A stretch of 64,000 nt of DNA from Desulfocapsa sp. GTDB lineage: Bacteria > Desulfobacterota > Desulfobulbia > Desulfobulbales > Desulfocapsaceae. The notes beneath the pieces are model-generated. The model was not told the DNA's origin, ran no database searches, and saw nothing but the letters and a program-made list of their open reading frames with translations. Shown here piece after piece: positions 48,472-63,241 of the stretch (its first letter is position 1; each line of letters opens with the position of its first letter). The position numbers and the translations under genes are program-made. Location: positions 22,607 to 86,606 of the forward strand of contig JAQYVF010000007.1 in NCBI GenBank assembly GCA_030145625.1, given 5' to 3'.

Positions 48472-49605
48472 ATGAGGCCCGGTGAAAAAGACACGCCGTT
48501 GCTATTTACTTCAAGTCCCTCCTATACACTGGGAGTGGAACTTGAATTTCAGACGTTGGATAAGGAAAGCCTGAACCTCGCTCCTTTGGCTCCAGTCCTT
48601 CTCGATACTGCCCCAGCTATCCTCAGGCCTCGAATTACCCATGAATGGATACGATCCATCCTGGAAATCCGCACAGGTATCTGTTGTTCTGTTCGAGACG
48701 TTGAAAATGATCTGCTGCAGACCTGCGCATTGGCAGAGGAACTTGCCGAGGAGAATCACTGCCTCCTCTATGCTGCATCGCTTCACCCCTTTGCCAGATC
48801 TGAAGATCAGGTGCTGACCAAGGATGAACGCTATGAGCGAATTATGGCTGAATTGCAGATTGTCGGTCGTCGCTTTATCTCACAGGGATTCCACGTCCAT
48901 GTTGGGATGGTTGACGGAGATACAGCCATTAGGGTCTGTGATAGGATTCAACCTTATCTCCCGCTCTTCCTGGCACTTTCTGCATCTTCTCCTTTCTTTC
49001 ATGGAGAAGATACCGGACTCATGTCTTACAGGACAAAACTGTTTGAGGCCCTGCCTCTTGCCGGAATTTATGAGCAGCTCAGAGATTGGGAAAATTTTCT
49101 TGATGAGATGAATATGCTCAAAGAGGCAGGGGTGATAGAATCTATCAAGGATTTGTGGTGGGATGCCAGGCCTCATCCAGGGTTTGGTACTCTGGAAATC
49201 AGGGCCTGCGATCTACCCACTCGCTTTGGCGATATTCTTGGACTCACTGCTCTGATTCAATGTTTTGTTGCGGCCCTTGCCGAGTCGCCACCACAAACGA
49301 TGACCTGTAGTCAGCAATTCCTTCGTTGTAATAAATGGCAGGCCGTGCGCTATGGTCTTGATGGAACTTTTATTGATCCATTAGGGCTTCTTGGAGGAGG
49401 AAGGATGCAACTGCGTGAGGCAGTAAGGCGTCTGATTGTGGAGGTTCAGCCCTTGGTCCAACGCTTTGGCTCAGAGCGATATATCGGCATGTTGGACAGG
49501 ATCCTGGAAACCGGAACGGGTGCTGATTGTCAACGCCGAGCGTATGCAGAGCATAGGGATTTTAGAAAAGTCATCCAGCAATTACATCGAGAGTTCTGGC
49601 AATGA
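48472..49605 (+). CDS. ybdK: Carboxylate-amine ligase YbdK (glutamate-cysteine ligase family 2)
   Basis: YTLGVELEFQTLD and GFHVHVGM are typical GCS2 blocks. Confidence 0.85.
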   Translation: MRPGEKDTPLLFTSSPSYTLGVELEFQTLDKESLNLAPLAPVLLDTAPAILRPRITHEWIRSILEIRTGICCSVRDVENDLLQTCALAEELAEENHCLLYAASLHPFARSEDQVLTKDERYERIMAELQIVGRRFISQGFHVHVGMVDGDTAIRVCDRIQPYLPLFLALSASSPFFHGEDTGLMSYRTKLFEALPLAGIYEQLRDWENFLDEMNMLKEAGVIESIKDLWWDARPHPGFGTLEIRACDLPTRFGDILGLTALIQCFVAALAESPPQTMTCSQQFLRCNKWQAVRYGLDGTFIDPLGLLGGGRMQLREAVRRLIVEVQPLVQRFGSERYIGMLDRILETGTGADCQRRAYAEHRDFRKVIQQLHREFWQ

Positions 49606-49707
49606 GTACCTGCCGATGATTGTTTGAAAGCAACGTGTTTGAGCGTAAAAAATGCTTTGCCGCAGAACAATTACATTCTGATATTCTAAATTGTTTTCTA
49701 TAGAGAT

Positions 49708-51249
49708 ATGAAAAATCACAAATATACGAAGTCCATAGCGGCTACTGGGCATCCCCTGGTCAGTAAGGCAGCGGCATCTGTTCTGCATGCAGGAGGAAAT
49801 GCCTTTGATGCTGTTGTGGCTGCAGGTTTTGCTTCAAGTGCAGTGGAACCAGCCCTCAATAGTCTAGGTGGAGGCGGGTTCCTGCTTGGTCATTCAGCTG
49901 GAAAGGGGCAGAATCTGTTTTTCGATTTTTTTGTAGATACGCCGGGACTTGGAACAAATCGTTCGGTTGTGGAACCGCATTTTTTTCCTGTAACCGTACA
50001 GTTCTCCGGGTCACAACAGGATTTTAATGTGGGCTTAGGTTCCGTGGCCGTACCTGGAACTCTGAAAGGCTTGCTGCATATTCATCGCCAACTTGGATTC
50101 ATGGATCTTGCGGAAGTGGTTGCTCCTGCCATTAAACTAGCCAGGGAACACAGGCTGAATAGTAAACAGGCCTATTTTCTGAAACTTCTTTATCCTATCA
50201 TGACCCTCTTTCCTGAAGGACGATTAATTTATGAACCGGATGGAGATTACCTGCAGGAAGATGATCTGTTGCACAATCGGCTTTTGGCAGCTTTTCTTGA
50301 AGAAATAGTTGTAGATAAGGGAGAAAGTTTTTACCGCGGTGAGATAGCAGCGCGGATTGGAGAGGATATGGCGGAGAACTATGGGATTCTCACCCGAAAT
50401 GACCTTGGCGCCTATGAGGTCAGAGAGCGCACTCCCCTGGCCGTTTCTTTTCGTGACTATCAGCTACTCACTTCTCCGCAGCCATCCATGGGAGGTTCGT
50501 TGGTGGGTCTTTCTTTGTCTCTGCTTTCCCGCGAAAATTCTCCTGATTTCGATTTTGGTTCAGCAGAGTATCTTCTCCATACCACGGGATTGATGCAGGA
50601 GGTGGAACGGATACGAAAATCAGGTTTCATGACTCCAGCGGATCTGGAGTCTTTTTTACAAAACAATGTAATCGGGACTCAAGCAGTGGAGAATATAAGA
50701 CTCTTTTCCAGGGGGACTACTCACATTTCCGTAGCTGATAAGGATGGAAATTGTGCTGCGATGACATGTTCCAACGGAGAAGGTTCCGGTTACTTTGCGC
50801 CTAATAGTGGTGTGATGTTGAATAATATGATGGGTGAGGATGACCTGCATCCAAATGGCTTTCATTCCAGTCCCCCAGGTCAGCGCGTTGGTTCGATGAT
50901 GTCACCTTCTCTGCTGGTCAAGGATGGTGATGTCTGCCTGGTCATTGGCAGCGGTGGGTCTAAAAGAATTAGAATTGCTGTGAGCCAGGTTCTGACCCAA
51001 GTTGTGGATTTTGGAAGATCGATTCAGGAGGCTGTTAGCGCTCCTCGCCTGTATTGGGATGGTGAAAAGGTTCAACTGGAACCCGGCTTTTCTTCGGAGG
51101 CGGTTAATCACTTGCGGCAAAAGGTAGATGTCAATGAATGGGAAGCTCGTGGAGTCTATTTCGGTGGGGTACATGCTGTAATACCCGGAGTGGGAGGCGC
51201 CGGAGATCCTCGCCGGGGAGGTGCTGTGGAAGTGGTGAGCGCTCTTTGA
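49708..51249 (+). CDS. ggt: Gamma-glutamyltransferase
   Basis: Autoprocessing and nucleophile region SRGTTHISVADKDGN, plus a C-terminal GGA...DPRRGG block. Confidence 0.88.
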   Translation: MKNHKYTKSIAATGHPLVSKAAASVLHAGGNAFDAVVAAGFASSAVEPALNSLGGGGFLLGHSAGKGQNLFFDFFVDTPGLGTNRSVVEPHFFPVTVQFSGSQQDFNVGLGSVAVPGTLKGLLHIHRQLGFMDLAEVVAPAIKLAREHRLNSKQAYFLKLLYPIMTLFPEGRLIYEPDGDYLQEDDLLHNRLLAAFLEEIVVDKGESFYRGEIAARIGEDMAENYGILTRNDLGAYEVRERTPLAVSFRDYQLLTSPQPSMGGSLVGLSLSLLSRENSPDFDFGSAEYLLHTTGLMQEVERIRKSGFMTPADLESFLQNNVIGTQAVENIRLFSRGTTHISVADKDGNCAAMTCSNGEGSGYFAPNSGVMLNNMMGEDDLHPNGFHSSPPGQRVGSMMSPSLLVKDGDVCLVIGSGGSKRIRIAVSQVLTQVVDFGRSIQEAVSAPRLYWDGEKVQLEPGFSSEAVNHLRQKVDVNEWEARGVYFGGVHAVIPGVGGAGDPRRGGAVEVVSAL

Positions 51250-51303
51250 TCCGTAGCTTGTCACCTAAGTAGTTGTTAATGGGAGCTATTCCCTTGGCTT
51301 GGG

Positions 51304-51320
51304 TGGGTAGAAAATACCCA
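51304..51320. promoter_or_regulatory. Palindrome TGGGTA-GAAAA-TACCCA (candidate enhancer/UAS for the sigma54 activator)
   Basis: Perfect 6-bp arms, about 120-135 nt upstream of the sigma54-type promoter at 51439. The same GGGTA-N5-TACCC architecture occurs at 52638-52652. An extra GGGTA half-site lies at 51336-51340. Confidence 0.4.
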
Positions 51321-51438
51321 TGCCTTTCTCTGGGCGGGTAAAAAAGAAACACTTTTAGTGGGGAATTGTTCTCGTCTGTGTGAGTGACATGCTCTTAACA
51401 TGCAGTAATTCAACGAAATGTTGTGTTCGCTCGTTTTG

Positions 51439-51454
51439 TGGCACGCTTGTTGTA
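51439..51454 (+). promoter_or_regulatory. Sigma54-type promoter P1 (TGGCAC-N5-TTGT)
   Basis: TGGCACGCTTGTTGTA has correct GG-to-minus-12 spacing, but the -12 element reads GT instead of GC. It is 15/17 identical to P2. Confidence 0.45.
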
Positions 51455-51464
51455 AGATAAAGAC

Positions 51465-51541
51465 AAAGGAAAATGTAACTTCATTTTTTCTTCCCCTCCC
51501 AAGGCCCCTCTGAACTTGTTCAGAGGGGCCTTCCCTTTTTG
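51465..51541 (+). ncRNA. Candidate sigma54-dependent small RNA (promoter plus terminator unit without an ORF)
   Basis: It lies between P1 and a strong terminator. The only ATG is followed directly by TAA. It contains TTCTTCCCCTCCC (51488-51500), an anti-Shine-Dalgarno-like stretch. The 5' end is predicted only. Confidence 0.4.
51501..51541 (+). terminator. Rho-independent terminator
   Basis: AAGGCCCCTCTGAAC-TT-GTTCAGAGGGGCCTT forms a 15-bp perfect stem and is followed by CCCTTTTTG. Confidence 0.75.
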
Positions 51542-51871
51542 TCTGTAAAAATTCTTATGCTCCATGTCGCTAGGTTACTTGAGTGAGGTAGAAAACTTGT
51601 CGGTTAGATTTATCTGGCAGGTTTCATATTCTTTAGCTTTCCATGGCATTATTCCAACGTAGGCGTGAAATTAGCCGATCTTTATATCCCTTTTCTTTAT
51701 ATCACTCCACCTTTTTACCAGTTGGTTTGGGACTTCCTTGTTTCTTCTCATTATTTTATACGACAATTTTGTCGACAGAAACCATTAAATGTCGAATTAT
51801 AGCATTTTTCAGTGTTGAGGGTGTGTAGGAAAACCCACTGAAAACACTTTGCATATCGATTTTTATGAGCC

Positions 51872-51887
51872 TGGCATGCTTCTTGTA
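51872..51887 (+). promoter_or_regulatory. Sigma54-type promoter P2 upstream of 52027..52401
   Basis: TGGCATGCTTCTTGTA. A degenerate palindrome GGGTGTGTAGGAAAACCCA lies at 51818-51837. Confidence 0.45.
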
Positions 51888-52026
51888 ATACCTTTGGTCA
51901 TAATAACTGTCTGACAGCAAGCAACCTCTCAATGTGAGATGACAAAAGAATGACTATAGAATCCGACACAGGAAAAACAAACTATCTTCCCACAAGGGAA
52001 GTTTTATTTAACAGGAGGCATTTTTT

Positions 52027-52401
52027 ATGAAACGTTCAATCAAGATTGTGAAAACACTTGTTATGGCAGGAGTTCTCAGCATGTTGTCTTTTCCGGTTAT
52101 GGCAGGAAATGGCAATGGTCCTTGTGATGGTAGCGCAGACGGCATTGGCAATGGTTCAGGTATGGGAGACTGCTTTAATGCTGTCTTTACCATGGATGCT
52201 GATCTTCTTGCGCGAGGTGGCAATGGTGGTGGCGGGGGTGGCGGTGGTAATGGTGGCGGTGGTAATGGCGGTGGCGGTAATCGAGGTGGCGGAGGTAATG
52301 GTGCTGATGGCAGTGATGGTGGTTATGGTGATGGAACTGGTGACAGACCGCAAGATGGCACTGGGGTCGGACCTGGGACAGGCGACTGCATTAACACTTA
52401 A
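52027..52401 (+). CDS. Secreted Gly/Asn/Asp-rich low-complexity protein with three Cys (GPCDG, GMGDC, GTGDC)
   Basis: Sec signal MKRSIKIVKTLVMAGVLSMLSFPVMA. AGGAGG lies 9 nt upstream. The mature part is dominated by GGN repeats (GGNGGGGGGGGNGGGGNGGGGNRGGGGNG). Confidence 0.6.
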   Translation: MKRSIKIVKTLVMAGVLSMLSFPVMAGNGNGPCDGSADGIGNGSGMGDCFNAVFTMDADLLARGGNGGGGGGGGNGGGGNGGGGNRGGGGNGADGSDGGYGDGTGDRPQDGTGVGPGTGDCINT

Positions 52402-52637
52402 TGGCTGGCCAATCCTGGATTACAGGATATTGCACGAAGAAGGGATTTTCTCTTCTTCGTGCAATATGCCAATTCTTCTGGTGAACAAAAGAATTTCTGA
52501 ATACCATTCAGACGTAGCAAAACAAGAAATAATAAGGGTGACACGTGATATCTCACAAGTATTCCATTGCCGCAAAGCCATTCCCGTGTAGGCTGGAATC
52601 CAGAGTATTTGGAAAGATCTCTCTTGATTCCCTTCAA

Positions 52638-52652
52638 GGGTAATTTTTACCC
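52638..52652. promoter_or_regulatory. Palindrome GGGTA-ATTTT-TACCC (candidate UAS)
   Basis: Perfect 5-bp arms with a 5-nt spacer, about 117-130 nt upstream of sigma54 promoter P3. Confidence 0.4.
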
Positions 52653-52768
52653 GAATTCTGGTTGGTTGTAGAAAAAAGATACACTTGTGTGGATTATGCA
52701 TATAGCAGCTGCTTGATTTAGAATTATAAAATTTCATTATATGCATCTGTTGCATATTCTATGTTTTG

Positions 52769-52784
52769 TGGCATGCTCTTTGCT
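52769..52784 (+). promoter_or_regulatory. Sigma54 promoter P3 (TGGCAT-N5-TTGC) upstream of the ZraP-like gene
   Basis: TGGCATGCTCTTTGCT has consensus GG/GC spacing. It lies about 65 nt upstream of the ATG at 52848. Confidence 0.7.
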
Positions 52785-52847
52785 AGATTTTAATGTAAGA
52801 GACTGATAGAAGCGATTTATTTCCAAAAAACAACAAGGAGACTTGTG

Positions 52848-53303
52848 ATGAGAAAAGTATTTGCAGGAGTGGCTTTGGTCTTAATTATAGGATTCACCGG
52901 ATTTTATCAAGCATCTGCCAATTGGGGGCAGGGGAGGATGATGGGTGGGTGTTCAACAGATTGTCCTCAGAATAGAGGCTTGAGTAGTGCTCCTATGGAT
53001 GCCGAAACCACTGCGAAGTTTGAAAAGTTTTTCGACGAAACTCTTGATCTACGTAAACAGATTGTTGTTAAGCGTGCAGAAAAACAAGCATTGATGCGTG
53101 CGGAAGAACCGGATTCTGCTACTGTCGGAAAGGTAACCGGGGAATTGTTTGATCTCCGCAATATTATGCGATCAAAGGCTAAGGCAGCAGGGCTGCAGGG
53201 CGTTGGTGGAATGGGTTGTCGCAGTGGTAATTGTGATGGATCTGGTTCTTCCAATTGCGGCAGAGGCATGAGGGGTGGACAAGGTATGATGAAAATGCAG
53301 TAA
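52848..53303 (+). CDS. Periplasmic Spy/CpxP/ZraP-family protein (heavy-metal / envelope-stress chaperone-like) with Gly/Cys/Met-rich tail
   Basis: Signal peptide, then a helical core KRAEKQALMRAEEPDSATVGKVTGELFDLRN that parallels ZraP, and a tail GGMGCRSGNCDGSGSSNCGRGMRGGQGMMKMQ. AAGGAG lies 7 nt upstream of the ATG. Confidence 0.7.
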   Translation: MRKVFAGVALVLIIGFTGFYQASANWGQGRMMGGCSTDCPQNRGLSSAPMDAETTAKFEKFFDETLDLRKQIVVKRAEKQALMRAEEPDSATVGKVTGELFDLRNIMRSKAKAAGLQGVGGMGCRSGNCDGSGSSNCGRGMRGGQGMMKMQ

Positions 53304-53343
53304 TTTTTTTTCTTTTTTCAAGGTGGCCTTCACTTCCTTTTGA

Positions 53344-53375
53344 AACCCGACAGGCTTTTCCTGGCGGGTTTTTTT
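53344..53375 (+). terminator. Rho-independent terminator after the ZraP-like gene
   Basis: AACCCGACAGG-CTTTTC-CCTGGCGGGTT followed by TTTTT. Confidence 0.7.
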
Positions 53376-53656
53376 GTAGCTGGTTCTCTGCTCGATCTTT
53401 TTGTTGACCTGAGATCTGATAGCCGGTGTTGATTGTAAAGGGTAACTGTCTGACATTATGGTGAGATAAATTTTAGGTGACAAGTGTGGAATTATGAGTG
53501 GCAAGTGGTTTTGCTGGTAAAAATGACCATCTTTTTGATAGGATAAGCAGAGTTGAATTTAGTCCTCATGCTTGAGGGTATCTTGCAAGAAGTATGATCA
53601 AGCCGGTGACAATCTAGCAGACTGAAAATTTTAACCTGAGGTTAGGGTAAGTTACT

Positions 53657-54496
53657 ATGAGTATACGTAAAATCACATCATTGACAATGTTGATAACCTT
53701 TGTTTTAGAGGTGATTACTTCTGTTGTCCTTTATATTGTTCCACATGGCCGGGTGGCTTACTGGGCTGATTGGCATCTGTTTGGTTTGAGTAAAACCGAG
53801 TGGGCCAATCAACATATCAATCTTGGCGTACTTTTTTTCCTCGCTGCTTTTGTTCACGTTTTCTTCAATTGGAGACCGATAGTTGCATATCTAAAAAACA
53901 GGGCCAAAGAGGTGAGAATTGTCACTGTATCCTTTAATGTTGCCTTGTTGTTCTCACTGGTGGTAGCTGTTGGAACCTATTTTGAGGTACCACCCATGAG
54001 TACTGTTATTCATTTCAGTAACTCGATCAAGGATAATGCTTCAAAGGTATACGGGGAACCCCCTTATGGTCATGCAGAACTTTCTTCTCTGAAGCTTTTC
54101 ACAAAGAAACTGGGTCTTGATCTTGAACAAAGTATTACGCTTCTTGAGCATGCAGGGATTGTTGTGGAGGACAGCTCCATGACTTTGAAAGATATTTCTT
54201 CTGCCAATAATCTGCCTCCACAAAAGATTTATTCTTTAATTGAGGCTGCAAAAGTGGAAGAGACATTAGGGGGGGGAGTGGTTTTTCCCGACTCGCCCAT
54301 GCCGGGTTTTGGTAATAAGACTATGGCGGAGATCTGTGCCGAATTTAATCTTCATTTTCCTATGATCAAACAGGGATTTGCTGAAAAAGGTGTTCAGATA
54401 AAAGCTGAGCAGACTATTAAGGAAATAGCTGCTGCACACGATACTGAAGGTATAGCAATTTTTAATCTTTTGCATGGAATTGTTACAGGGGATTAG
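53657..54496 (+). CDS. DUF4405-like membrane protein with soluble C-terminal extension
   Basis: N-terminal TM helices with conserved His (IVPHGRVAYWADWH, FVHVFFNWRP). The C-terminal half, about 130 aa, is soluble. Confidence 0.55.
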   Translation: MSIRKITSLTMLITFVLEVITSVVLYIVPHGRVAYWADWHLFGLSKTEWANQHINLGVLFFLAAFVHVFFNWRPIVAYLKNRAKEVRIVTVSFNVALLFSLVVAVGTYFEVPPMSTVIHFSNSIKDNASKVYGEPPYGHAELSSLKLFTKKLGLDLEQSITLLEHAGIVVEDSSMTLKDISSANNLPPQKIYSLIEAAKVEETLGGGVVFPDSPMPGFGNKTMAEICAEFNLHFPMIKQGFAEKGVQIKAEQTIKEIAAAHDTEGIAIFNLLHGIVTGD

Positions 54497-54505
54497 ATTG
54501 TTTTC

Positions 54506-55042
54506 ATGATGAATATACAGAAAATTTCTTTTATTTTGATACTGCTGCTCGGTGTATTTCCAGCCAGAGGTTATGCTGAATTTCTCTATGGGCAAGTGGT
54601 TGAGGTCAATAGAGATGCGCAAGAGTTTGTACTCGTCTCTCTTTCGCCAGATAAAGAAGATACAGATTTGTCAGGAAATACTGCTCGAATCAGGGTGAAG
54701 GCTATGGGTGCAATGTTGCCCCAATCCGAGGAAGGAGATTCTTTTTTACCCGGATGTGTACAGGTAGGCAAAAGAGTGAGGGTTTGGGGGGAAACACCTG
54801 CTTCAGGAGCATCTTTTCTGGCAACAGATGTTCGTGGTTGTGGAGGGATGGGGTGTAGTGATCCCACAGGCGTCCGATCTCGACTCCAAAAAGACAAAAA
54901 ACGTAACTATTGGAATCAAGGCACAGACAGCAGTGATGTTGATGGAGGTGGCAGTACGGGTAGAGGGAATGGGCGTGGCAACGGAGGTGGCGGTGGCGGT
55001 AGCGGTAACGGTGGTGGTGGTGGTGGAGGGCGTGGCCGATGA
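54506..55042 (+). CDS. Secreted protein with CGGMGC motif and Gly/Asn/Arg-rich C-terminal tail
   Basis: Signal MMNIQKISFILILLLGVFPARGYA and tail GRGNGRGNGGGGGGSGNGGGGGGGRGR. The stop overlaps the kinase start (ATGA). Confidence 0.6.
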   Translation: MMNIQKISFILILLLGVFPARGYAEFLYGQVVEVNRDAQEFVLVSLSPDKEDTDLSGNTARIRVKAMGAMLPQSEEGDSFLPGCVQVGKRVRVWGETPASGASFLATDVRGCGGMGCSDPTGVRSRLQKDKKRNYWNQGTDSSDVDGGGSTGRGNGRGNGGGGGGSGNGGGGGGGRGR

Positions 55043-56595
55043 GCTCACTCCCAAGCTGGAAGAGTAATTTAATCGTTTTTATTTTATTAACATTGCTGGT
55101 TGTTTCATATTTTTTTTATGAGCAACAGAGTATCACAAAAAGTTATCAGCACCATTCTCGTGTACATTCTGAGATCCTTGCAGCTGTTGTGGAACTCAAT
55201 ATTCGCAATGCCTATCTGACTCGTGATACCATAGAAACACTTTTAACGGGTAGTTTGGCAAACAGTGGTCGTTTTGTTGCCTACCTTAATGATATCGATC
55301 CGTTTTCAGCAGGCGAACTCGCCGCCTTTGCAAGAGAAGCTGGACTTGCCGGCATAGGTATTCATGATTTGAAAAACGATCTGCTGGTGAGTGGACCGCA
55401 GGGTTGGCTTCCGGCAGCAGGACAGATTGGTCATTCGGCCAATGAAGGACTCAAGTATCTGCCGGAGCAAGAGCTCTATCTTTACACTCTGTGCACTTCT
55501 TCATCCTGCATACTTGTGGGGCTGGATACAGGTGAAATTGAAAAGATGCTAGATGATGTCAGTGTTGAACGACTTCTCGGCCTGTTAAGTAATCTGGCTG
55601 GAATTGCCTATGTAAATATTGTAACGGCAGAAGGCTCTCACCCATCTGTTGCAGAATATTCCAGTTTCTCTTCTAGCTCATCTGGAGGTGTGGTTGTAGA
55701 GACCATCCTCAATTTCCAAGAGAAGGATATTGTAGTTGGCCTGTATGCAGATCTTTTTTTTGAACGAATGACACAGCTTCGGAGAAGATTTGGTGTCTTT
55801 TTTTCTCTACTTTTTCTTGCTGGCATTCTCTCTTCCTGGTGGCTTTATCGTGTACAGCGGCAGCGGCTTGAAGATGCAAGAGATTTTGAAAGAAGGATGG
55901 CGCGTCAGCATGAGGCTGCAGCCTTAGGAAGAACCACGGTTACAATAACCCATGAAATGCGGAACCCTCTTAATGCCATAGGAATAGGGCTGCAACGTCT
56001 TGAACTTGAGGCCGCTGAACTCAGTTCAGAACACCGGGGCCTGGTGACAGGGATGAGAGAAGCGGTCAGTCGTACTAATGGAATTATTTCCCGTTTGCGT
56101 CAATATGTGCATTCCTTTGAGTTGGCTTATCAGGAAATTTGTCTGGTAGACCTCCTTGGCTCCCTGGTTAATCTCTACGCTCAGCAGTGTAAGACACAGG
56201 GGATTGAGGTGCAGATTAGAGGAGAAAAAAATTGTGTTGTTCAGGGAGATAAAAATTTATTGGGAGAGGTTTTTGAAAATCTCGTAAAAAATGGAATAGA
56301 GGCCCAGCCTGATGGCGGCTATTTGGACATTGATGTAACAATGAAGGAGCAGGAGTGTGTTGTTTTGCTGCGAAACGGTGGTCAGCTTCCCGATACAAAG
56401 AAACAGGTATTACTTCTGGAACCTTTTTTCACCACCAAGGCCAAGGGAACCGGTCTCGGCCTTGCTATCAGTAAGAAGATTGTGGACGCCCATGGCGGAA
56501 GATTAGAGTTACAGGTAGATAGAGATGAGCAGGTTTTTCGAGTGGTGGTTACGTTGTTGAGGCGACCAAGTCACATGAAGTCTTTGAAAACTTGA
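55039..56595 (+). CDS. Sensor histidine kinase (two TM segments with a periplasmic sensing region, ZraS-like architecture)
   Basis: H-box ITHEMRNPLNAI, N-box FENLVKNGIEA and G-box GTGLGLAISKKIV. Confidence 0.85.
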   Translation: MSSLPSWKSNLIVFILLTLLVVSYFFYEQQSITKSYQHHSRVHSEILAAVVELNIRNAYLTRDTIETLLTGSLANSGRFVAYLNDIDPFSAGELAAFAREAGLAGIGIHDLKNDLLVSGPQGWLPAAGQIGHSANEGLKYLPEQELYLYTLCTSSSCILVGLDTGEIEKMLDDVSVERLLGLLSNLAGIAYVNIVTAEGSHPSVAEYSSFSSSSSGGVVVETILNFQEKDIVVGLYADLFFERMTQLRRRFGVFFSLLFLAGILSSWWLYRVQRQRLEDARDFERRMARQHEAAALGRTTVTITHEMRNPLNAIGIGLQRLELEAAELSSEHRGLVTGMREAVSRTNGIISRLRQYVHSFELAYQEICLVDLLGSLVNLYAQQCKTQGIEVQIRGEKNCVVQGDKNLLGEVFENLVKNGIEAQPDGGYLDIDVTMKEQECVVLLRNGGQLPDTKKQVLLLEPFFTTKAKGTGLGLAISKKIVDAHGGRLELQVDRDEQVFRVVVTLLRRPSHMKSLKT

Positions 56596-56607
56596 AGGAC
56601 TAGGAGC

Positions 56608-57945
56608 GTGATGAAGATACTGATTGTTGATGATGAAGAAATGCAACGGGATATGCTGGGGGGATTTCTTAAGAACAAGGGTTATGATGTTCTAACCGCA
56701 GCAGGGGGAAGAGAGGCGTTGCAGATTTTTTCCAGGGAACCTGTCCAACTGGTCCTGGTCGATCATCGCATGGATGGAATGAACGGTGATGAGCTGCTGG
56801 AAAAAATGAAAGAGATTTCTCCTCTGCTGCGGGCCATCATGATCACAGCTTTTGGTTCGGTTACCACTGCCGTTCGTGTTATGCAGCTCGGTGCAGATGA
56901 TTTCCTGGAGAAGCCGGTGGATCTTTCTGTCTTGTTACAGAAGATTGAACAGATAGAACAGAACCTGGCTGTGAATGAGGAGGCGGAGGAGGTTGCAGAA
57001 TCTCTAGAAATAGCAAAGGTCCCCTTTGATATAATTGGTTCGAGTAAGGCCATGCATGAGGTGCTTTCCCTTGGACATCGTATTGCGCCAACTGACTGGA
57101 CTGCTCTTATCCGTGGAGAAACAGGTACCGGTAAGGAATTGGTAGCCAAAATGATTCACCTTCTGAGTCCACGTAAACAGGGGCTTTTTGTGGAAGTAAA
57201 TTGCGCTGCTATTCCAGAGAACCTGTTTGAGTCTGAGCTCTTTGGTCATGAAAAAGGTGCTTTTACCGGAGCCTCAACCACAAGGCGCGGTCGTTTTGAA
57301 CAGGCTCGGGGAGGGACTATTTTTCTTGATGAGGTTGGGGAGCTTCCTCTGCAGTTGCAGGCCAAGTTGCTCAGAACTTTACAGGAAAAGAAGATCAGCA
57401 GGGTTGGAAGTGAAAAAGAGATTTCTGTGGATATTCGTGTTTTGTCGGCAACAAATCGTGATCTGAAAAAGATGGTTGAAAAAGGAACATTTCGTGAAGA
57501 TCTCTATTTTCGATTGAATGTCCTGGAAATTATCGTCCCACCTCTGCGCGAGAGGCGTTCTGATATTCCTGAACTTGGGGAATTTTTTCTAAGTAAGCAC
57601 TGCGGTGCCCGCAAGGTGAGTATCTCCAGTGATGCCATGAATCAGCTGGTGAAATATGATTTCCCTGGAAATGTGAGGGAACTTGAACATTTATTGCAAC
57701 GTCTTATCACTTTGGTGCGTGGTAAGGTTATTCGCTTTGAAGATCTCCCTCCAGAAGTTCGTGATAAACAGGTGAGTGGAGGAAAACTCAGTCAGCGGCT
57801 TGCAGAGGTTGAAAAGAAGATGCTGGTCCATGCCCTGGAAGAACATGATTGGGTGCAGACCAGAGCTGCAGAGTCCCTGGGTATCAGTGAGAGAGTCTTG
57901 CGATATAAGATGGGGAAGGCTGGAATTGATCGTGGAAATGGTTAA
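56608..57945 (+). CDS. Sigma54-dependent response regulator (NtrC/ZraR family: REC, AAA+ and Fis-type HTH)
   Basis: REC domain (ILIVDDEE...VDHRMDGMNG), Walker A GETGTGKE, the GAFTGA loop (EKGAFTGA), and a C-terminal HTH AAESLGISERVLRYKM. Confidence 0.92.
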   Translation: MMKILIVDDEEMQRDMLGGFLKNKGYDVLTAAGGREALQIFSREPVQLVLVDHRMDGMNGDELLEKMKEISPLLRAIMITAFGSVTTAVRVMQLGADDFLEKPVDLSVLLQKIEQIEQNLAVNEEAEEVAESLEIAKVPFDIIGSSKAMHEVLSLGHRIAPTDWTALIRGETGTGKELVAKMIHLLSPRKQGLFVEVNCAAIPENLFESELFGHEKGAFTGASTTRRGRFEQARGGTIFLDEVGELPLQLQAKLLRTLQEKKISRVGSEKEISVDIRVLSATNRDLKKMVEKGTFREDLYFRLNVLEIIVPPLRERRSDIPELGEFFLSKHCGARKVSISSDAMNQLVKYDFPGNVRELEHLLQRLITLVRGKVIRFEDLPPEVRDKQVSGGKLSQRLAEVEKKMLVHALEEHDWVQTRAAESLGISERVLRYKMGKAGIDRGNG

Positions 57946-58040
57946 AGGGTATTGTTTTGATGCTTTTGTGGATGGCCCCACGTGGAGTGTCGTGAAGCGT
58001 CATGCGGCACAATATGTTGTGTTTTGTTGATGGCATGTCC

Positions 58041-58067
58041 TTGACATAAATGTGTTGATCGTATAAT
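58041..58067 (+). promoter_or_regulatory. Candidate sigma70 promoter of the riboswitch transcript
   Basis: Consensus hexamers TTGACA and TATAAT, but with only a 15-nt spacer. The -10 hexamer ends 11 nt before riboswitch P1. Confidence 0.45.
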
Positions 58068-58078
58068 GTGAAATTGTG

Positions 58079-58464
58079 TTCAGGTGTCTGTAACAGGACT
58101 GAAAAGGGAACTTCGTGAGAATCGAAGACGGGCCCGCCGCTGTAACCGAGGACAAATCCTGCATCCATGCCACTGACAGCATTTTAATGCCTTGGAAATG
58201 AATTGTTAATTCTAGGGTACCTTGAAAAATTAGAATTTTAGTTCAAAATCGAGGCATGAGAGAAATTTTACCGTAGGCGCCCCGCAGGAAGTGCCCTTGG
58301 GGTGCATATATTTGATATTCCGAGGATAAAATTTTTCTCATAACGAAGAGTTTGGGCGAAAAGGCAATTTTGCAAGGTGACCTCTATTCTATCGAGGGCA
58401 AAAGAAATCCTGATCGGGAAGGCGCAGAGGGAGATTGATTCGGAAGTCAGAAGACCTGCCTGAA
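58079..58464 (+). promoter_or_regulatory. Cobalamin riboswitch-like leader, interrupted by the 177-bp repeat at 58214-58390
   Basis: Conserved core strings appear in order: GGTGTC, AAAAGGGAAC, CGTGAGAATCG, ACGGGCCCGCCGCTGTAA, GCCACTG, then (after the insert) CGGGAAGGC and the B12 box AAGTCAGAAGACCTGCC. P1 can form between TTCAGG (58079-84) and CCTGAA (58459-64). Confidence 0.7.
58214..58390. repeat. MITE-like palindromic dispersed repeat, copy B (177 bp) inside the riboswitch
   Basis: It shares both arms with copy A (24981-25130). Terminal inverted repeats are AGGGTACCTTGAAAAATT and the reverse complement of AATTTTGCAAGGTGACCT. The internal GC stem is GCGCCCC...GGGGTGC. Confidence 0.65.
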
Positions 58465-58787: not shown

Positions 58788-61007
58788 TTATCCCAGTAGA
58801 TTGCCTATCTGAAAAACAAGAAAGGCCGCGAGAAAGGCAAAAACAGTATTAAAGGCCATGGAGAAAAAGGCCCACTTCCAGGAACCTGCTTCTTTGGCAA
58901 TACAGACCACGGTGACAAAGCAGGGGGCGTAAAACATGATGAAAATCAATACGGCTACCGCCACGACACTATTCCAATGCGGGTCTCTGACCAGTCGTTC
59001 TCCAAGTGAATCAGATGCATCAACTTCCACTTCACCCATTGAGTAAGCAGTCCCTAGAGTGGAGATAATTACCTCTTTTGCTGCAAATCCTCCAAGTAGT
59101 GCGATATTTGTCCGCCAGTCGAATCCGGCAAGGCTTGAGACCGGCTCAAGAAAGGTTCCGATTTTACCGGCAATTGAGTATCGCAAACCGGCTCCGGATT
59201 CTTCCTGATCAATGATTGTCAGCTCTGCTTTCAGTTGTTTCCCTTTTTTCGACAGTTCCCCTGTTTCCTGATTATAAGCGAGAAGTTCTGATCTGATTGA
59301 TTCAGGATAGCTCTGGCTTATTGCAGTCCGTTTTGCTGAAAAATTATCCTGTTGGGATTCCGGAAGGCCGGGATAGGTCATTAGTGCCCAGAGAATAATG
59401 GAGATTCCAAGAATGACGGTTCCCGCCTTCTTGATATATTGCCAGGTACGCTCCCAGGTATGGATGACCAGTCCTCTCAGTGTGGGGAAACGGTAGGGCG
59501 GCAGTTCCATGACAAAGGGTGTTGCTTCTCCCTTGAGTACCGTCATACGCAGGAACTTTGCAACCACAAGGGCAACAAACCAGGCCAACATGGTAAAAAG
59601 GAACATGTAGAGGGCCTGATGATCGGTAAAAAATGCACCGATAAGCAGAACCAGAACAGGAACCTTTGCCCCACAGTTCATAAAGGGAACCGTGAGCAGT
59701 GTGGCCATGCGTTCTTTGGGGGAACGAAGGGTCCTTGTTGCCATGACTCCGGGAACTGCACAACCGCCGGCTATTCCACCGGATACAATAAAAGGCATTA
59801 CCGAGGAACCGTGCAGGCCGAAAATACGAAAAATGCGGTCCATCATAAACGCTACGCGAGCCAGATAACCGGAATCTTCAAGGATAGCAATGCCAAAAAA
59901 CATAAACATAATAAGGGGAACAAAACCGAGAACACCACCAACGCCATCAATAACACCTGAGATGAGCATGGATTTAAGCGGACCGTCGGGAAGAGTCGTA
60001 TCAGCTATTCCACCCATCCAACCGAAAAGAGATTCCATCCAGGAAACCGGCAGTTCACTCCAGGAAAAGGTGAACTGGTAAAGGCCAAAGAGGATGAGCA
60101 GCATGATAACCGGACCAATGAGGCGATTGGTGAGAACTTTGTCAATTTTATCTGAAGTGTAGAGACGATCAATATCAAATTTATGGGTAAGGACTCCCTG
60201 GCGGATAATGGATTTTATAAAGCCATAACGATGGTCGGCAATCATCGATTCCGGATACACCTCCATGGTCTTGAGCAGGTGGTCTGAAATAGCCCCCACC
60301 ATCTGTTCGAGTTTTTGGGCGATGACTGGATCAGCTTTCTGTCCAAGGGTCAGAATCTGATCATCATGCTCAAGGTATTTAATGCCTGTGTAATGGGGAG
60401 GATAGGTACTGCTGAGAAATGAAGAATCAGAAATGATGGAGACGATCTTCATGAGGACCTCATCAAGATCGTCTCCGTAGGAAATATCCTTTGGATTCCA
60501 TATCTTTTCAGATTGAGCCACTTCAATGGCCTGCTTGATTAACTCTTCTGTCCCTTGACCCGACCTGGCAATGATGGGCACAACCTGAACACCGAGGAGT
60601 TCTGCCAATTTCTCACAGCGAACCGTTATCCCACGATCTTTTGCCACATCAATCATGTTCAGGGCAATAATCAGAGGAACTCCCATTTCGAGAAACTGGG
60701 TTGTGAGATACAGGTTTCTTTCTAAATTAGAGGCATCAACAATGTTTATGACAACGTCGGGCCGGTTGTTGGTGAGAAAATCTCTACTTACTATTTCCTC
60801 TACTGAATAGGCAGTCAGCGAATAGGTACCGGGGAGGTCGGTAATAGTAACTTTTTGGTCTTTATAAGTGAAATGTCCTCTTTTGTGATCTACCGTAATT
60901 CCAGGGTAATTTCCTACATGCTGTCTGGATCCGGTAAGTTCGTTGAAGAGGGTGGTCTTGCCGGCGTTAGGATTGCCGGCCAGTGCCATGGTAATGGGTT
61001 TTTTCAT
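58788..61007 (-). CDS. feoB: Ferrous iron transporter FeoB
   Basis: N-terminal G-domain GNPNAGKTTLFN, DLPGTYSL and NMIDVA. The C-terminal part is a polytopic permease. Confidence 0.95.
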   Translation of the reverse strand: MKKPITMALAGNPNAGKTTLFNELTGSRQHVGNYPGITVDHKRGHFTYKDQKVTITDLPGTYSLTAYSVEEIVSRDFLTNNRPDVVINIVDASNLERNLYLTTQFLEMGVPLIIALNMIDVAKDRGITVRCEKLAELLGVQVVPIIARSGQGTEELIKQAIEVAQSEKIWNPKDISYGDDLDEVLMKIVSIISDSSFLSSTYPPHYTGIKYLEHDDQILTLGQKADPVIAQKLEQMVGAISDHLLKTMEVYPESMIADHRYGFIKSIIRQGVLTHKFDIDRLYTSDKIDKVLTNRLIGPVIMLLILFGLYQFTFSWSELPVSWMESLFGWMGGIADTTLPDGPLKSMLISGVIDGVGGVLGFVPLIMFMFFGIAILEDSGYLARVAFMMDRIFRIFGLHGSSVMPFIVSGGIAGGCAVPGVMATRTLRSPKERMATLLTVPFMNCGAKVPVLVLLIGAFFTDHQALYMFLFTMLAWFVALVVAKFLRMTVLKGEATPFVMELPPYRFPTLRGLVIHTWERTWQYIKKAGTVILGISIILWALMTYPGLPESQQDNFSAKRTAISQSYPESIRSELLAYNQETGELSKKGKQLKAELTIIDQEESGAGLRYSIAGKIGTFLEPVSSLAGFDWRTNIALLGGFAAKEVIISTLGTAYSMGEVEVDASDSLGERLVRDPHWNSVVAVAVLIFIMFYAPCFVTVVCIAKEAGSWKWAFFSMAFNTVFAFLAAFLVFQIGNLLG

Positions 61008-61123
61008 CGGTATCTAAGGTCGTGAAAGAGGGGATTGAGAGAATGGGTTAAAAACTGCAGAGAATTATATTGTCTGTATTTTGATACAAATTATATTGTC
61101 TGTTTTTAAGTGAGGGGCTGATG

Positions 61124-61318
61124 TTATTTCTCCTTTTTACTCAGGTCGTGCTCGATGGACCGGCTATCACATGATGCTTCTCCGCAACCGGAACAGCTGC
61201 ATCCACAAGAAATCTGCTGCGCTGGATCTGTTGCCTGGCGAAATTGCCGGTAGAACCTTTTTCCAATAAAAAAGAGAGCAATGCTTATAATAAGTATAAC
61301 AATTCCAATCTGCCACAT
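61124..61318 (-). CDS. FeoB-associated Cys-rich membrane protein
   Basis: One TM segment followed by SCGCSCSGCGEASC. It lies between feoA and feoB. Confidence 0.6.
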   Translation of the reverse strand: MWQIGIVILIISIALFFIGKRFYRQFRQATDPAQQISCGCSCSGCGEASCDSRSIEHDLSKKEK

Positions 61319-61399
61319 AAATTTTCCTATTGTTAGGGTGTCCTAAGATGGGGGCCCCAAAAAAAAGACAGCTTACATCTTAAACGCTGTCTTCGGATT

Positions 61400-61711
61400 T
61401 TATACTGATTGTACGATAATATTGCTGCTTGTTGTATGGTCCAGGCTTAATGTGCCACCCTGGATTTTCAATAGGCATTGCGAACCCTTCTTTGGACAGA
61501 TTATTTCTGCCTCTTCACCAGCCAGTACACCAAGAGAGGCCATTCTGGCACAGAGCTTTCTGTCACCGGTGATCTTGCAGATCTTCACCTTCCCTGCGTG
61601 ACAGGTTTCTGAGAGAGGGCCATGCTGTCCAACGCAATGTTGGGAGACGGTACACTGTTGTACTTTTTTGGCTAAGCAACGACATTTTTTATTCAAGTCC
61701 TTCAGGGTCAT
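61400..61711 (-). CDS. feoA: FeoA-domain protein with Cys-rich N-terminal extension
   Basis: C-terminal FeoA SH3-like domain (ITGDRKLCARMASLGVLAGEEAEII...LSL). AAGGAGAG lies upstream of the ATG at 61711 (MTLKDL). The track start at 61732 is less likely. Confidence 0.75.
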   Translation of the reverse strand: MTLKDLNKKCRCLAKKVQQCTVSQHCVGQHGPLSETCHAGKVKICKITGDRKLCARMASLGVLAGEEAEIICPKKGSQCLLKIQGGTLSLDHTTSSNIIVQSV

Positions 61712-61939
61712 ATCACTCTCCTTAGTAAACAATGTTTAGGTACACCAAACTTTATGGACTGTCAACAGATTTATCAAGGTCCTTGTGTCTTTTTTTAGAA
61801 TTTTTTTGGAATGTTAGGTGGGAACATAACGGAGTTGCTGATTAAGTTTCTTGTGTTTAGAAAGCATATCAGTCACTATAATTCTATCGGAGAGAAAGGA
61901 ATTCGAGAAAAGAGATCTTTTGTTGTCTTGTTTCATGAA

Positions 61940-61971
61940 TACTCAAAGAGATAAGCGTAACTCTTTGAGTA
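61940..61971. promoter_or_regulatory. Perfect 11-bp inverted repeat in the feoA/CDF divergent intergenic region
   Basis: TACTCAAAGAG-N10-CTCTTTGAGTA, about 47 nt upstream of the CDF start. It could be an operator or a leader hairpin. Confidence 0.35.
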
Positions 61972-62017
61972 ACTTTTCACAGGCTAGATACGTTGCAATC
62001 GTTGGAGGTTCATATCT

Positions 62018-63241
62018 GTGAAGGAGAAGAGAGTTACTGCGGCATCATCAACGCTACGTGATGATGCCATGCCTCATAAACAATCTCAAAGAAAATTGGC
62101 TGCCGCCAGAAAACAGGCAGCTATTTCCATTTTACTGAACCTTTTTCTTGCACTCGGCAAGGGAATAGCCGGGATTCTGTCCGGTTCTGCTGCTCTGCTT
62201 GGTGATGCTATCCATTCCGCCACCGATGTCTTTGCCTCAGTTGCCGTATTCGTCGGTATTTGGGTGGCAGGACATGAGCACCCTTCCTTTCCGTATGGAC
62301 TCTATAAGGCAGAAACAGTTGCCGCTTTGATTACCTCCATTGCAGTTATTCTTGCCGGTTATGAGATAGGACGACAGGCAATATTCGGTGTTTCCGGACT
62401 TCCTGATGTTAGAATTGCTTTACCTGTTGCCAGCATTTCTCTTGTGATTGCTCTGGGGTTTGGAATTTTTCAGTTACGTGCCGGGAAGAGATTGGATTCC
62501 CCTGCACTTATCGCAGATGCCCGTGACTACCTTGCCGATTCCCTCTCCACCGCCGTGGTGCTCATCAGTCTGCTGGTTGTTCCCTTAGGCTATAACGTGG
62601 ATCGACTCGCAGCCGGGATTGTATGTCTCTTTGTTTTTTATGCAGGTGGACAGCTGTTTATTGGAGCCTTGAAAGATCTCCTGGATGCCTCAATCGATAG
62701 AGAGACAGAACGAGAAATAATAGGTTTTGTGGAGGAACACCCAAGAATCATACGTGTTAAAAAATGTTTCAGCAGAAAGGCAGGAGGTCGTTTTCTGCTG
62801 GACATGGATGTGGTTCTGCACACACCTTCCCATAAAGTGGCAGATCTGGTTGCAGATCGTTTAGAAAAAGAATTGTTACACCGTTATCCCAGGCTTATTC
62901 TTGCCCGTATCCGGCCCCATTATTCTCCGGGACAGTTTATACGAAGAGTCACTCCGGTGGAAAGCCCTAAAGGAGAATTAAGTTTTCATCTTGCTACCGC
63001 CCCATGGTTTCTCGTTGAAGTCATGCTAACTGAGACCAGAGAAGTAAAAAGGCGCCAGTTTGTAGAAAATCGGTATAAAGATGCGAAAAAGAGAAAAGGA
63101 CTGTTGGTTGGACGCTTGTTGCTGAAATTGAAACCGGACGAGGTTGTGGCAGAGGATAAGGAGAGTGTCGCGGTAATATTACTCAAAGAAGCAGGAGTTG
63201 ATATGGTTCAGCCTTCTTCGCTAACCTCAACGATGATATGA
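62018..63241 (+). CDS. Cation diffusion facilitator (CDF) transporter fused to a C-terminal NifX/NifB-like (dinitrogenase FeMo-cofactor-binding fold) domain
   Basis: CDF TM motifs (HSATDVFAS, DARDYLADSLS) and a cytoplasmic domain. An extra ~110 aa follows, FHLATAPWFLVEV...VAVILLKEAGVDMV, resembling NifX_NifB-type domains. Confidence 0.75.
   Translation: MKEKRVTAASSTLRDDAMPHKQSQRKLAAARKQAAISILLNLFLALGKGIAGILSGSAALLGDAIHSATDVFASVAVFVGIWVAGHEHPSFPYGLYKAETVAALITSIAVILAGYEIGRQAIFGVSGLPDVRIALPVASISLVIALGFGIFQLRAGKRLDSPALIADARDYLADSLSTAVVLISLLVVPLGYNVDRLAAGIVCLFVFYAGGQLFIGALKDLLDASIDRETEREIIGFVEEHPRIIRVKKCFSRKAGGRFLLDMDVVLHTPSHKVADLVADRLEKELLHRYPRLILARIRPHYSPGQFIRRVTPVESPKGELSFHLATAPWFLVEVMLTETREVKRRQFVENRYKDAKKRKGLLVGRLLLKLKPDEVVAEDKESVAVILLKEAGVDMVQPSSLTSTMI

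Follow-up and report, generated by a model that had tools for sequence, protein, structure and literature searches.

The window analysed here, a stretch of 64 kb from Desulfocapsa sp. (contig JAQYVF010000007.1), contains a compact locus with sigma-54 promoters, which was compared with related loci and contigs designated by L-numbers (L001, L003 and so on). The locus encodes, in this order, a candidate small RNA (sRNA), a Gly/Asn/Asp-rich protein here called p1, a ZraP-like protein and a four-gene operon for a DUF4405 membrane protein, an accessory protein with a predicted oligonucleotide/oligosaccharide-binding (OB) fold, here called p4, a sensor histidine kinase and an NtrC-class response regulator (Table 1). 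A sequence-only reading had described an expanded Zra-like sigma-54 regulatory and secretory locus. Its open reading frames (ORFs), operon packing and three promoters are all borne out and its label of an undescribed envelope system is a fair one, but we consider it likely that the locus consists of two separate sigma-54 regulons and not of one expanded Zra system, a judgement that jointly covers the cassette around the OB, kinase and regulator genes, the enhancer of this cassette and p1 as its output.

The ORFs for p1 (124 amino acids, aa), the DUF4405 protein (279 aa), p4 (178 aa), the kinase (518 aa) and the regulator (445 aa) are confirmed, as is the one for the ZraP-like protein, which starts at 52845 or 52848 (151-152 aa). 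The operon is tightly packed with intergenic gaps of 9 nucleotides (nt) and 12 nt, while the stop codon of p4 and the start codon of the kinase gene lie within a shared ATGA (4-nt overlap). The N-termini of p1, the ZraP-like protein and p4 are Sec-like, with a basic N-region and a single hydrophobic stretch of 19-26 residues, and cleavage is predicted at VMA/G, ASA/N and GYA/E (the slash marks the cut). Profile searches find DUF4405 (PF14358; 61.4 bits vs a cutoff of 26.7), HisKA plus HATPase_c in the kinase, and Response_reg (97 bits), Sigma54_activat (245 bits) and HTH_8 (52 bits) in the regulator, with Metal_resist (PF13801) borderline on the ZraP-like protein (28.1 bits vs a cutoff of 29.2).

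Table 1. Features of the sigma-54 locus in the window, and of related loci where indicated by an L-number.
Feature	Position	Strand	Remarks
Enhancer type A, sRNA	51305..51352	+	palindrome GGGTAGAAAATACCC (51305-51319), second box GGGTAAAAAAGAAACAC (51336-51352), ~134 nt before promoter
Sigma-54 promoter, sRNA	51439..51454	+	TGGCACGCTTGTTGTA; kept in L001, L007, L009 and 7 further metagenome loci
Candidate trans-acting sRNA, ~77 nt	51465..51541	+	5' end inferred from promoter position
Enhancer type B, p1	51760..51796	+	palindrome CGACAATTTTGTCG, TGTCGA half-site 16 nt downstream; 111 nt before promoter 51872
Sigma-54 promoter, p1	51872..51887	+	TGGCATGCTTCTTGTA; identical in L001, equivalents in L003, L007, L009, L010, L039
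p1, secreted (predicted) Gly/Asn/Asp-rich two-Cys protein, 124 aa	52027..52401	+	strong ribosome binding site (AGGAGG)
Enhancer type A, ZraP-like gene	52638..52684	+	palindrome GGGTAATTTTTACCC (52638-52652), second box GTAGAAAAAAGATACAC (52668-52684), 131 nt before promoter
Sigma-54 promoter, ZraP-like gene	52769..52784	+	TGGCATGCTCTTTGCT
ZraP/CpxP/Spy-family periplasmic protein, 151 aa	52848..53303	+	helical core and Gly/Met/Cys tail; monocistronic
Decayed type-B enhancer and sigma-54 promoter upstream of operon	53392..53539	+	TCGATCTTTTTGTTGA (53392-53407), TGACCATCTTTTTGAT (53524-53539)
DUF4405 membrane protein, 279 aa	53657..54496	+	three transmembrane (TM) helices and C-terminal domain of two small helical repeats
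p4, secreted (predicted) OB-fold accessory protein, 178 aa	54506..55042	+	directly before kinase gene
Two-TM sensor histidine kinase, 518 aa	55039..56595	+	HisKA and HATPase_c; TM ~4-30 and 251-270
NtrC-class sigma-54 response regulator, 445 aa	56608..57945	+	receiver, AAA+ with GAFTGA, Fis-type helix-turn-helix (HTH) WVQTRAAESLGISERVLRYKM
Cobalamin riboswitch copies in relatives	L001 13580-13818; L006 5648-5844; L007 11611-11844; L009 11563-11761; L027 266-452; L028 1969-2155 (-)		
Proteins with cationic tail	window 52848-53303, 54506-55042; L009 3523-4263; L013 3288-4115; L017 9496-9843 (-); L019 4054-4401, 5211-5930		

The OB, kinase and regulator genes occur in every cassette locus whose contig reaches far enough (19 distinct loci with an OB protein identity of 32-86%), and in all 19 the p4 gene is located immediately upstream of the orthologous kinase gene, which it usually overlaps. 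These loci belong to Desulfobulbales and Desulfobacterales, with Desulfocapsa, Desulfobulbus and Desulfobulbaceae metagenome-assembled genomes, Desulfolithobacter dissulfuricans, Desulfobacterales and Desulfocicer niacini as hosts. The DUF4405 gene is present in 16 of the 19 loci and missing from L019, L020 and L021. In a neighbourhood survey of the relatives, the two small genes at 52027-52401 and 54506-55042, which had been singled out from the sequence as lacking an explanation, are conserved and syntenic, and neither carries an annotation.

The p4 protein starts with a signal peptide, followed by a barrel predicted to be five-stranded, the stretch RGC-x4-C-SDPTGVRSRL and a helix, and its disordered, Gly-rich tail terminates in GGGGGGGRGR. 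While a word-indexed search retrieves 15 relatives, an exhaustive profile search retrieves 265 clusters (at 50% identity), of which 121 reach E <= 1e-10. Members of the family so delineated have in common a signal peptide, a predicted beta-barrel of ~90 residues, the hallmark DPTGVRxRL and a Gly/Arg-rich tail, with G95, D119, G122 and R126 invariant. No Pfam, NCBIfam or PDB sequence match was obtained for p4. Its AlphaFold 2 (AF2) model shows a five-stranded barrel plus helix with a mean predicted local distance difference test (pLDDT) of 63.7, rising to 74-89 in most strand-containing blocks, and Foldseek aligns this model with the OB folds of RPA14, Ten1, CcmE and CusF (E = 5e-5 to 5e-3, target-normalised template modelling score ~0.5). 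As a small, predicted periplasmic OB barrel p4 resembles CusF and other periplasmic OB-fold metallochaperones, although the match to CusF is weak (E = 5e-3); unlike CusF, it lacks the Met/His/Trp ligands for Cu(I), its Cys residues are not found family-wide, and its gene is coupled to a kinase and not to an efflux pump.

The kinase possesses a periplasmic domain of ~220 aa, which gave no Pfam, PDB or recognised-family match and in which no conserved Cys/His cluster or metal ligands were found, features which fit sensing through partner proteins. Several two-component systems are known to work with an accessory protein that is secreted or periplasmic, such as CpxP-CpxA, HbpS-SenS-SenR in Streptomyces, YgiW(BOF)-QseBC and TorT-TorS. 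The cassette shares with these systems a small exported protein (predicted in the case of p4) that is encoded together with a membrane kinase and presumably modulates it, and among them YgiW, a periplasmic protein whose gene is in one operon with those of a two-component system, has the OB fold that is predicted for p4. On the other hand, p4 has no sequence relationship to these accessory proteins, displays its own hallmark DPTGVRxRL and Gly/Arg tail, and is coupled with a sigma-54 regulator, frequently together with a heme-type membrane protein.

This membrane protein belongs to a DUF4405 subfamily of 279 aa with 2445 proteins. In 25 homologues (alignment A7), His53 and His67, which are located 14 residues apart in TM2, are invariant, as is the motif YGEPPYGHAELS after TM3 in the C-terminal domain. 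By the positive-inside rule this two-repeat domain would be periplasmic; its half of the protein returned nothing significant in Pfam, NCBIfam and PDB sequence searches, and Foldseek with the AF2 model (predicted template modelling score 0.30) yielded nothing at E <= 0.001. Binding of heme b is known for a DUF4405 protein from Oscillospiraceae and for FezC, a ferrosome protein with three TM helices that presumably binds it as a dimer (PMC11334425); by analogy, the DUF4405 protein of the window is likely to form a dimer that accommodates two b-type hemes. Members of both the DUF4405 and the DUF2202 family are repeatedly encoded in ferrosome clusters (PMC11334425; bioRxiv 10.1101/2020.01.10.902569). 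The combination of these two families in the loci described here, and a DUF4405 protein with three TM helices and two His in one helix, as in FezC, which needs dimerisation for heme, are thus reminiscent of ferrosome (fez) accessory genes. In contrast to ferrosome proteins, which carry an organelle-targeting R-rich N-terminus, the proteins of the present loci display a signal-peptide/periplasmic topology and are wired to a two-component system, and genes for FezA and the P1B-6 ATPase FezB are absent from both the window locus and the related loci.

The pattern TGGCAYG-N4-TTGYW has three matches in the whole 64 kb, at 51439, 51872 and 52769, where 0.12 are expected by chance, and none of 100 shuffles yields at least three. 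All three sites are kept in relatives and qualify as -24/-12 promoters, with GT instead of GC as the -12 element at two of the three; dependence on RpoN is predicted. Upstream of these promoters are enhancers of two unrelated types, located at -111 (type B) and at -131 and -134 (type A). Type A, with the consensus GGGTA-N5-TACCC plus a second box, is common to the ZraP-like and sRNA promoters at near-equal distances (131 and 134 nt), and its geometry matches that of the inverted repeats GAGTAAAAATGACTC in the intergenic region of E. coli zraP/zraS, repeats which we take to be ZraR sites. The type-A enhancer of the ZraP-like gene is conserved in L001, L006, L007 and L009, and the one of the sRNA in L001, L007, L009 and the metagenome sRNA loci, with the variant GAGTA-N5-TACTC in L028.

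In 18 of the 19 cassette loci, distant ones included, the type-B consensus TCGACA-N2-4-TGTCGA precedes a sigma-54 promoter by ~100 nt, and CGACAATTTTGTCG is its sole exact and intact match within the window. It stands over p1 in the window, L001, L003, L007, L009 and L010, and directly upstream of the cassette in L003, L005, L006, L009, L013, L015, L016, L017, L019, L020, L021 and L039. Its targets in relatives comprise, besides p1 and the cassette itself, secreted DUF2202 proteins (L005, L009, L010, L013, L019 and L021; 195 bits), an EF-hand protein (L017) and a protein with DADGDGICD repeats (L005). As the regulator family and the motif co-occur, type B can be provisionally assigned to the local regulator, which shares 61-95% identity with the regulators of all type-B loci, with the HTH WVQTRAAExLGISERVLRYKM near-invariant among them. 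The regulator is the sole sigma-54 activator in the window, which encodes neither a second one nor a DUF2202 protein.

Upstream of the operon, L006, L007 and L009 retain intact TCGACAttttTGTCGA...TGTCGAA and TGGCCTGCTTTTTGAT (alignment A9). In the window and L001 both elements carry substitutions and ~90 nt are deleted, wherefore the lineage of these two seems to have lost autoregulation of the cassette. A separate peculiarity is seen in L014, where the cassette is separated from the type-B enhancer by degenerate repeats of ~9 nt (CCAGAAGCC/CCAGAAACC) at positions 6551-6718; this repeat run stands where a promoter would be expected, but a sigma-54 promoter was not detected in it.

The p1 protein, the predicted local target of type B, has ~25 homologues (alignment A4) with ordered non-repetitive motifs and the exact C-terminal end in common. 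A Sec-type signal ending PAMA/GNG is followed by GxGxG(D/N) repeats, GPGTGDC(L/I)N, a hydrophobic segment (xFxxDxxLLARGG), poly(GGN) and the C-terminus DGTGNGPGTGDC(I/L)N of the pattern DGTGxGPGTGDC(I/L)N; the first Cys motif reads GxGTGDC(L/I/F)N across the family. The protein contains 35% Gly and is probably disordered, and just two Cys are conserved. No Pfam, NCBIfam or PDB sequence match was found for p1, and p1 and its homologues show no EF-hand, DxDxDG or Excalibur signature and no Pfam match, the nearest likeness to an EF-hand loop being DGTGNG within DGTGNGPGTGDC in most family members. The p1 gene adjoins the cassette in L001, L003, L004, L007, L009, L010, L019, L020 and L039 and is part of the same operon as the OB, kinase and regulator genes in the distant genomes L019, L020 and L039. 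Between the p1 genes of the window and L009, codon differences are synonymous in 37 and nonsynonymous in 33 cases.

The leader of p1 (~130 nt) includes a conserved hairpin at 51986-52001 (CTTCCCACAAGGGAAG then TTTTATTT) directly upstream of the Shine-Dalgarno sequence, which in L001 is maintained via a C-to-U change that creates a G-U pair and which may serve in attenuation or in the control of translation.

The ZraP-like protein is a true member of the ZraP family, as had been recognised from the sequence: BLASTP aligns it with E. coli ZraP over 63 aa of the helical core (33% identity, E = 2e-11), it matches Salmonella ZraP (PDB 3LAY; E = 8e-7) in an alignment that places its GMGC...C stretch on the known Gly/Met/Cys tail, and its L006 orthologue has an unmarked precomputed Metal_resist match (E <= 1e-5). 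With an NCBIfam ZraP score of 31.9 bits, far under the equivalog cutoff of 200, it is a homologue and not an orthologue of ZraP. It contains no LTxxQ string, MDAET standing where E. coli ZraP has LTSEQ. Its orthologues are limited to the closest clade (L001, L006, L007 and L009), and a hairpin plus T-run at 53346-53375 follows the gene.

The core of the sequence-only reading was that local equivalents of ZraS and ZraR activate all three promoters and that p1, p4 and the ZraP-like protein have a thiolate/thioether metal site GMG(D)C in common, a reading that we now regard as improbable. The locus does resemble ZraPSR of E. coli and Salmonella in that a periplasmic ZraP-family protein is encoded behind a sigma-54 promoter with upstream boxes of the type G(A/G)GTA-N5-TAC(T/C)C and next to a two-TM kinase and an NtrC-class regulator; furthermore, the three promoters are clustered, and ZraS is the top NCBIfam match of the kinase. 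This match, however, scores 135 vs a cutoff of 479 (370 vs 760 for the regulator against ZraR) and is confined to the cytoplasmic transmitter, residues 237-491, whereas the sensor domains of the two kinases are unrelated. The regulator is 43% identical to E. coli ZraR and differs from it in the recognition helix, which reads ITRKTLLAKL in ZraR; the family of the regulator tracks the TCGACA/TGTCGA motif, which is absent at the ZraP-like promoter, even at loci without a ZraP gene. The promoters are split between two unrelated enhancers, and ZraP-like genes occur in the closest clade only. Distinct from ZraPSR are also the tandem instead of divergent arrangement of the genes, two extra operon genes (DUF4405 and OB), the lack of an LTxxQ string and a His-rich tail in the ZraP-like protein, and a main output, the Gly/Asn/Asp-rich family, which is absent from Zra. 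As for GMG(D)C, the literal string is present once per protein, yet a conserved common site it is not, as the Met is variable in all three families: GMGD?C is seen in 1 of 23 p1-family members, GTGDC replacing the GMGDC of the window almost everywhere else; GMG(D)C is seen in 4 of 15 close and 2 of 24 broad p4 members, the others having CRGKGC, CRGGGC or no Cys; and the five ZraP-like orthologues include GGKGC, GAMGR and CGKGW. Since C-x4-C of p4 occurs in the Desulfocapsa-like subfamily only, CGGMGC is restricted to this subfamily. As the enhancer of the ZraP-like gene and the sRNA differs from that of p1 and displays the box geometry of E. coli zraP/zraS, both are probably under the control of another, ZraR-type activator encoded elsewhere.

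In the mechanism that we favour instead, the OB protein, and the DUF4405 dimer where present, would condition the periplasmic domain of the kinase, which would phosphorylate the NtrC-class activator. The phosphorylated regulator would bind TCGACA-N2-4-TGTCGA together with the TGTCGA half-site and activate the sigma-54 promoters of secreted proteins that are, by type, cation-binding (EF-hand, DxDxDG), ferritin-like (DUF2202) or acidic, Gly-rich and two-Cys (p1). Because of this set of outputs and the link to heme and ferritin, the role may be periplasmic divalent-metal and/or redox homeostasis, with the system detecting a disturbance of either and inducing cation-buffering or iron-handling proteins. 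In the window and L001, the operon would presumably be constitutive from some other promoter, with p1 as the sole local output, while the ZraP-like gene and the sRNA would form a second arm, an envelope-stress pair of a chaperone and an anti-Shine-Dalgarno sRNA. The architecture of this model, namely the cassette, its enhancer, p1 as output and the separation of two regulons, is probably right; the full model, in which the cassette induces cation-buffering or iron-handling proteins of the periplasm upon metal or redox disturbance, appears to us evenly balanced between right and wrong; and the metal/redox nature of the signal, the least secure element of all, is tentative. A wider proposal sees an unrecognised multi-component periplasmic sensor, common across Desulfobacterota, in the OB, kinase and regulator proteins together with a diheme DUF4405 protein, and in their outputs a new metal/iron-redox homeostasis pathway of sulfur-cycling anaerobes that is mechanistically related to ferrosome iron handling, with the sRNA/ZraP arm interleaved in the same island; it seems possible, although it falls somewhat short of being probable.

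Several observations weigh against this model. The pairing of motif and regulator rests solely on co-occurrence, L004 has no exact type-B site, and the operon's own type-B enhancer and sigma-54 promoter are, in the window as in L001, present as decayed remnants only. The Cys residues of p4 are not conserved family-wide, its OB model is of just moderate confidence (pLDDT 63.7), and the C-terminal domain of the DUF4405 protein has no structural match. Contigs without the block of p1, ZraP-like gene and cassette may carry a cassette elsewhere in the genome, in which case the type-A regulon could still depend on the local regulator. Above all, a metal or redox signal is guesswork, as the outputs are functionally obscure and the link to ferrosome clusters is weak.

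Within the same architecture, the signal could be the periplasmic oxidant or redox state rather than the metal load, with a diheme DUF4405 protein relaying the redox state of the quinone pool or periplasm to the kinase and feeding electrons to rubrerythrin-like di-iron proteins of the DUF2202 family, and p1 serving as a thiol redox buffer. Heme b is bound by DUF4405 proteins, for which a role as transmembrane electron carriers has been proposed (PMC11334425), and the invariant His pair in TM2 agrees with this role; DUF2202 belongs to a ferritin/rubrerythrin-like group with a weak Rubrerythrin match, a rhodanese and a rubrerythrin-like gene are located beside L017, and the hosts are strict anaerobes. 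As L019, L020 and L021 lack DUF4405, the EF-hand and DxDxDG outputs suggest cations over oxidants, and no thioredoxin-like, peroxidase or Dsb genes are present in the loci, we judge this alternative unlikely but not negligible. Far less probable still is that p1 is a structural or matrix protein that coats or nucleates periplasmic or extracellular deposits of mineral or sulfur in the manner of Gly-rich sulfur-globule proteins, with the cassette controlling these deposits. The high Gly content, the repeats, the Sec-type signal and a duplicated module in p1 of L007 are compatible with such a function, as are the cationic Gly/Arg tails on all secreted partners and the sulfur-disproportionating hosts Desulfocapsa and Desulfolithobacter; but p1 is homologous neither to sulfur-globule proteins nor to a structural family of any kind, its gene is small, present in a single copy and controlled by a sigma-54 promoter of the stress type, and members of its family occur in Desulfobacterales not known for such deposits. 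That 52027-52401 is a chance ORF in GGT/GGC-rich repetitive DNA, a notion to which long ORFs in several frames over the repeat (e.g. 52058-52591) and the lack of a self-match in the protein collection give some initial appeal, is effectively refuted by its strong ribosome binding site, its signal peptide, its dedicated conserved promoter and enhancer and its many homologues with a common C-terminal end. As p1 is kept beside or in the cassette across loci and across orders despite diverged DNA and frequent synonymous differences, it is a core partner of the cassette.

The second member of the type-A regulon is the sRNA. The promoter-terminator unit at 51.4 kb, already noticed in the sequence-only reading, is a real and conserved RNA gene, which by its promoter, terminator, non-coding body and covariation qualifies as a candidate trans-acting sRNA. 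It consists of a weak 5' A/U hairpin, the invariant single-stranded C/U-rich stretch CUUCCCCUCCC, which is anti-Shine-Dalgarno-like, and an intrinsic terminator at 51501-51532, and the window copy folds with -30.5 kcal/mol (z = -5.08). A metagenome scan with the invariant core led to 7 further distinct homologues, each with a sigma-54 promoter, type-A boxes and a terminator. Among 11 distinct sequences the core ACUUCAUUUUUUCUUCCCCUCCC is invariant and compensatory changes affect 5 terminator pairs. Rfam holds no family for this sRNA, with sub-threshold noise as the only result, and no target emerged in the window, where the best duplex with a translation initiation region (-14.7 kcal/mol) is inside the background range (1% tail -19.3). 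A minus-strand ORF at 51410-51565 was rejected as a true gene, as its Shine-Dalgarno sequence and ATG merely complement the sRNA seed and its frame is broken by a 5-nt indel in L009. The sRNA resembles GlmY/GlmZ, Qrr, CrcZ and NrsZ in being a short RNA with a -24/-12 promoter, an upstream activator site, an intrinsic terminator and an invariant single-stranded seed, but it has no sequence or Rfam relationship to them, its seed is an anti-Shine-Dalgarno C/U run, and it occurs in Desulfobulbales beside ggt.

An assignment of the sRNA to the cassette is not supported. Contigs L025, L027/L035 and L028 display the contiguous order gcs2-ggt-sRNA-(cobalamin riboswitch)-feoB with the type-A enhancer at the sRNA gene, and p1, ZraP and cassette are all absent. 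The sRNA is, by this distribution, an older element that is independent of the block, and the 6.5-kb p1/ZraP-like/cassette block represents an insertion/deletion polymorphism between sRNA and riboswitch.

With respect to known kinds of systems, the locus combines an accessory-protein-assisted two-component system, a sigma-54 envelope-stress regulon and a sigma-54-dependent sRNA. The OB/DPTGVRxRL family, the p1 family, the type-B enhancer, the coupling to DUF4405 and DUF2202 and the sRNA are undescribed; literature searches found no study of these parts, and the database names are all "hypothetical". Work on the D. vulgaris sigma-54 regulome, DAP-chip studies included, yielded no usable sequence of a matching motif or ZraR site for comparison. 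If true, the model provides a first functional context for OB/DPTGVRxRL proteins, Gly/Asn/Asp-rich two-Cys proteins and the 279-aa DUF4405 subfamily (>2400 proteins), and would tie ferritin-like proteins of the DUF2202 family to a specific regulator and a specific DNA motif. The enhancer sequence, the promoter set and the cultured hosts Desulfolithobacter dissulfuricans and Desulfocicer niacini offer a handle for periplasmic metal/redox sensing in sulfide-exposed strict anaerobes, and the sRNA adds a sigma-54-dependent anti-Shine-Dalgarno sRNA to a phylum with almost no characterised sRNAs. For annotation, a position beside a ZraP homologue alone does not justify a ZraSR label.

Most secreted proteins of both regulons carry a cationic Gly/Arg(/Met)-rich C-terminal tail, for example GGGGGGGRGR, GRGKGRGMGRRS, KRGRGRGMAR and GQGRGRRGGRWAN, even though the tail bearers (OB, DUF2202, EF-hand and ZraP-like proteins and a 115-aa helical protein) are otherwise unrelated. 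The p1 family has no such tail and ends ...GTGDC(I/L)N instead.

The block is flanked upstream by the GCS2 and gamma-glutamyltranspeptidase genes (48472-51249) and downstream by feoB (58788-63241), and feoA and a cation-diffusion-facilitator gene are expected downstream from the synteny of L001 and L006. These surroundings of thiol and iron/metal-homeostasis genes are common only to the closest relatives. The p1-ZraP-cassette block itself (~51550-58050) behaves as a variable island, which in L009 additionally holds a DUF2202 gene.

A cobalamin riboswitch (58065-58460, plus strand) is located between the regulator gene and the 3' end of convergent feoB, as it is between the sRNA and the convergent feoB 3' end in genomes without the block. 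No ORF is found downstream of it, and it may control an antisense or non-coding transcript that runs into feoB. The riboswitch scores 35.9 bits in the window vs 100-120 bits in relatives, as an insertion of ~165 nt (58215-58379) splits its aptamer.

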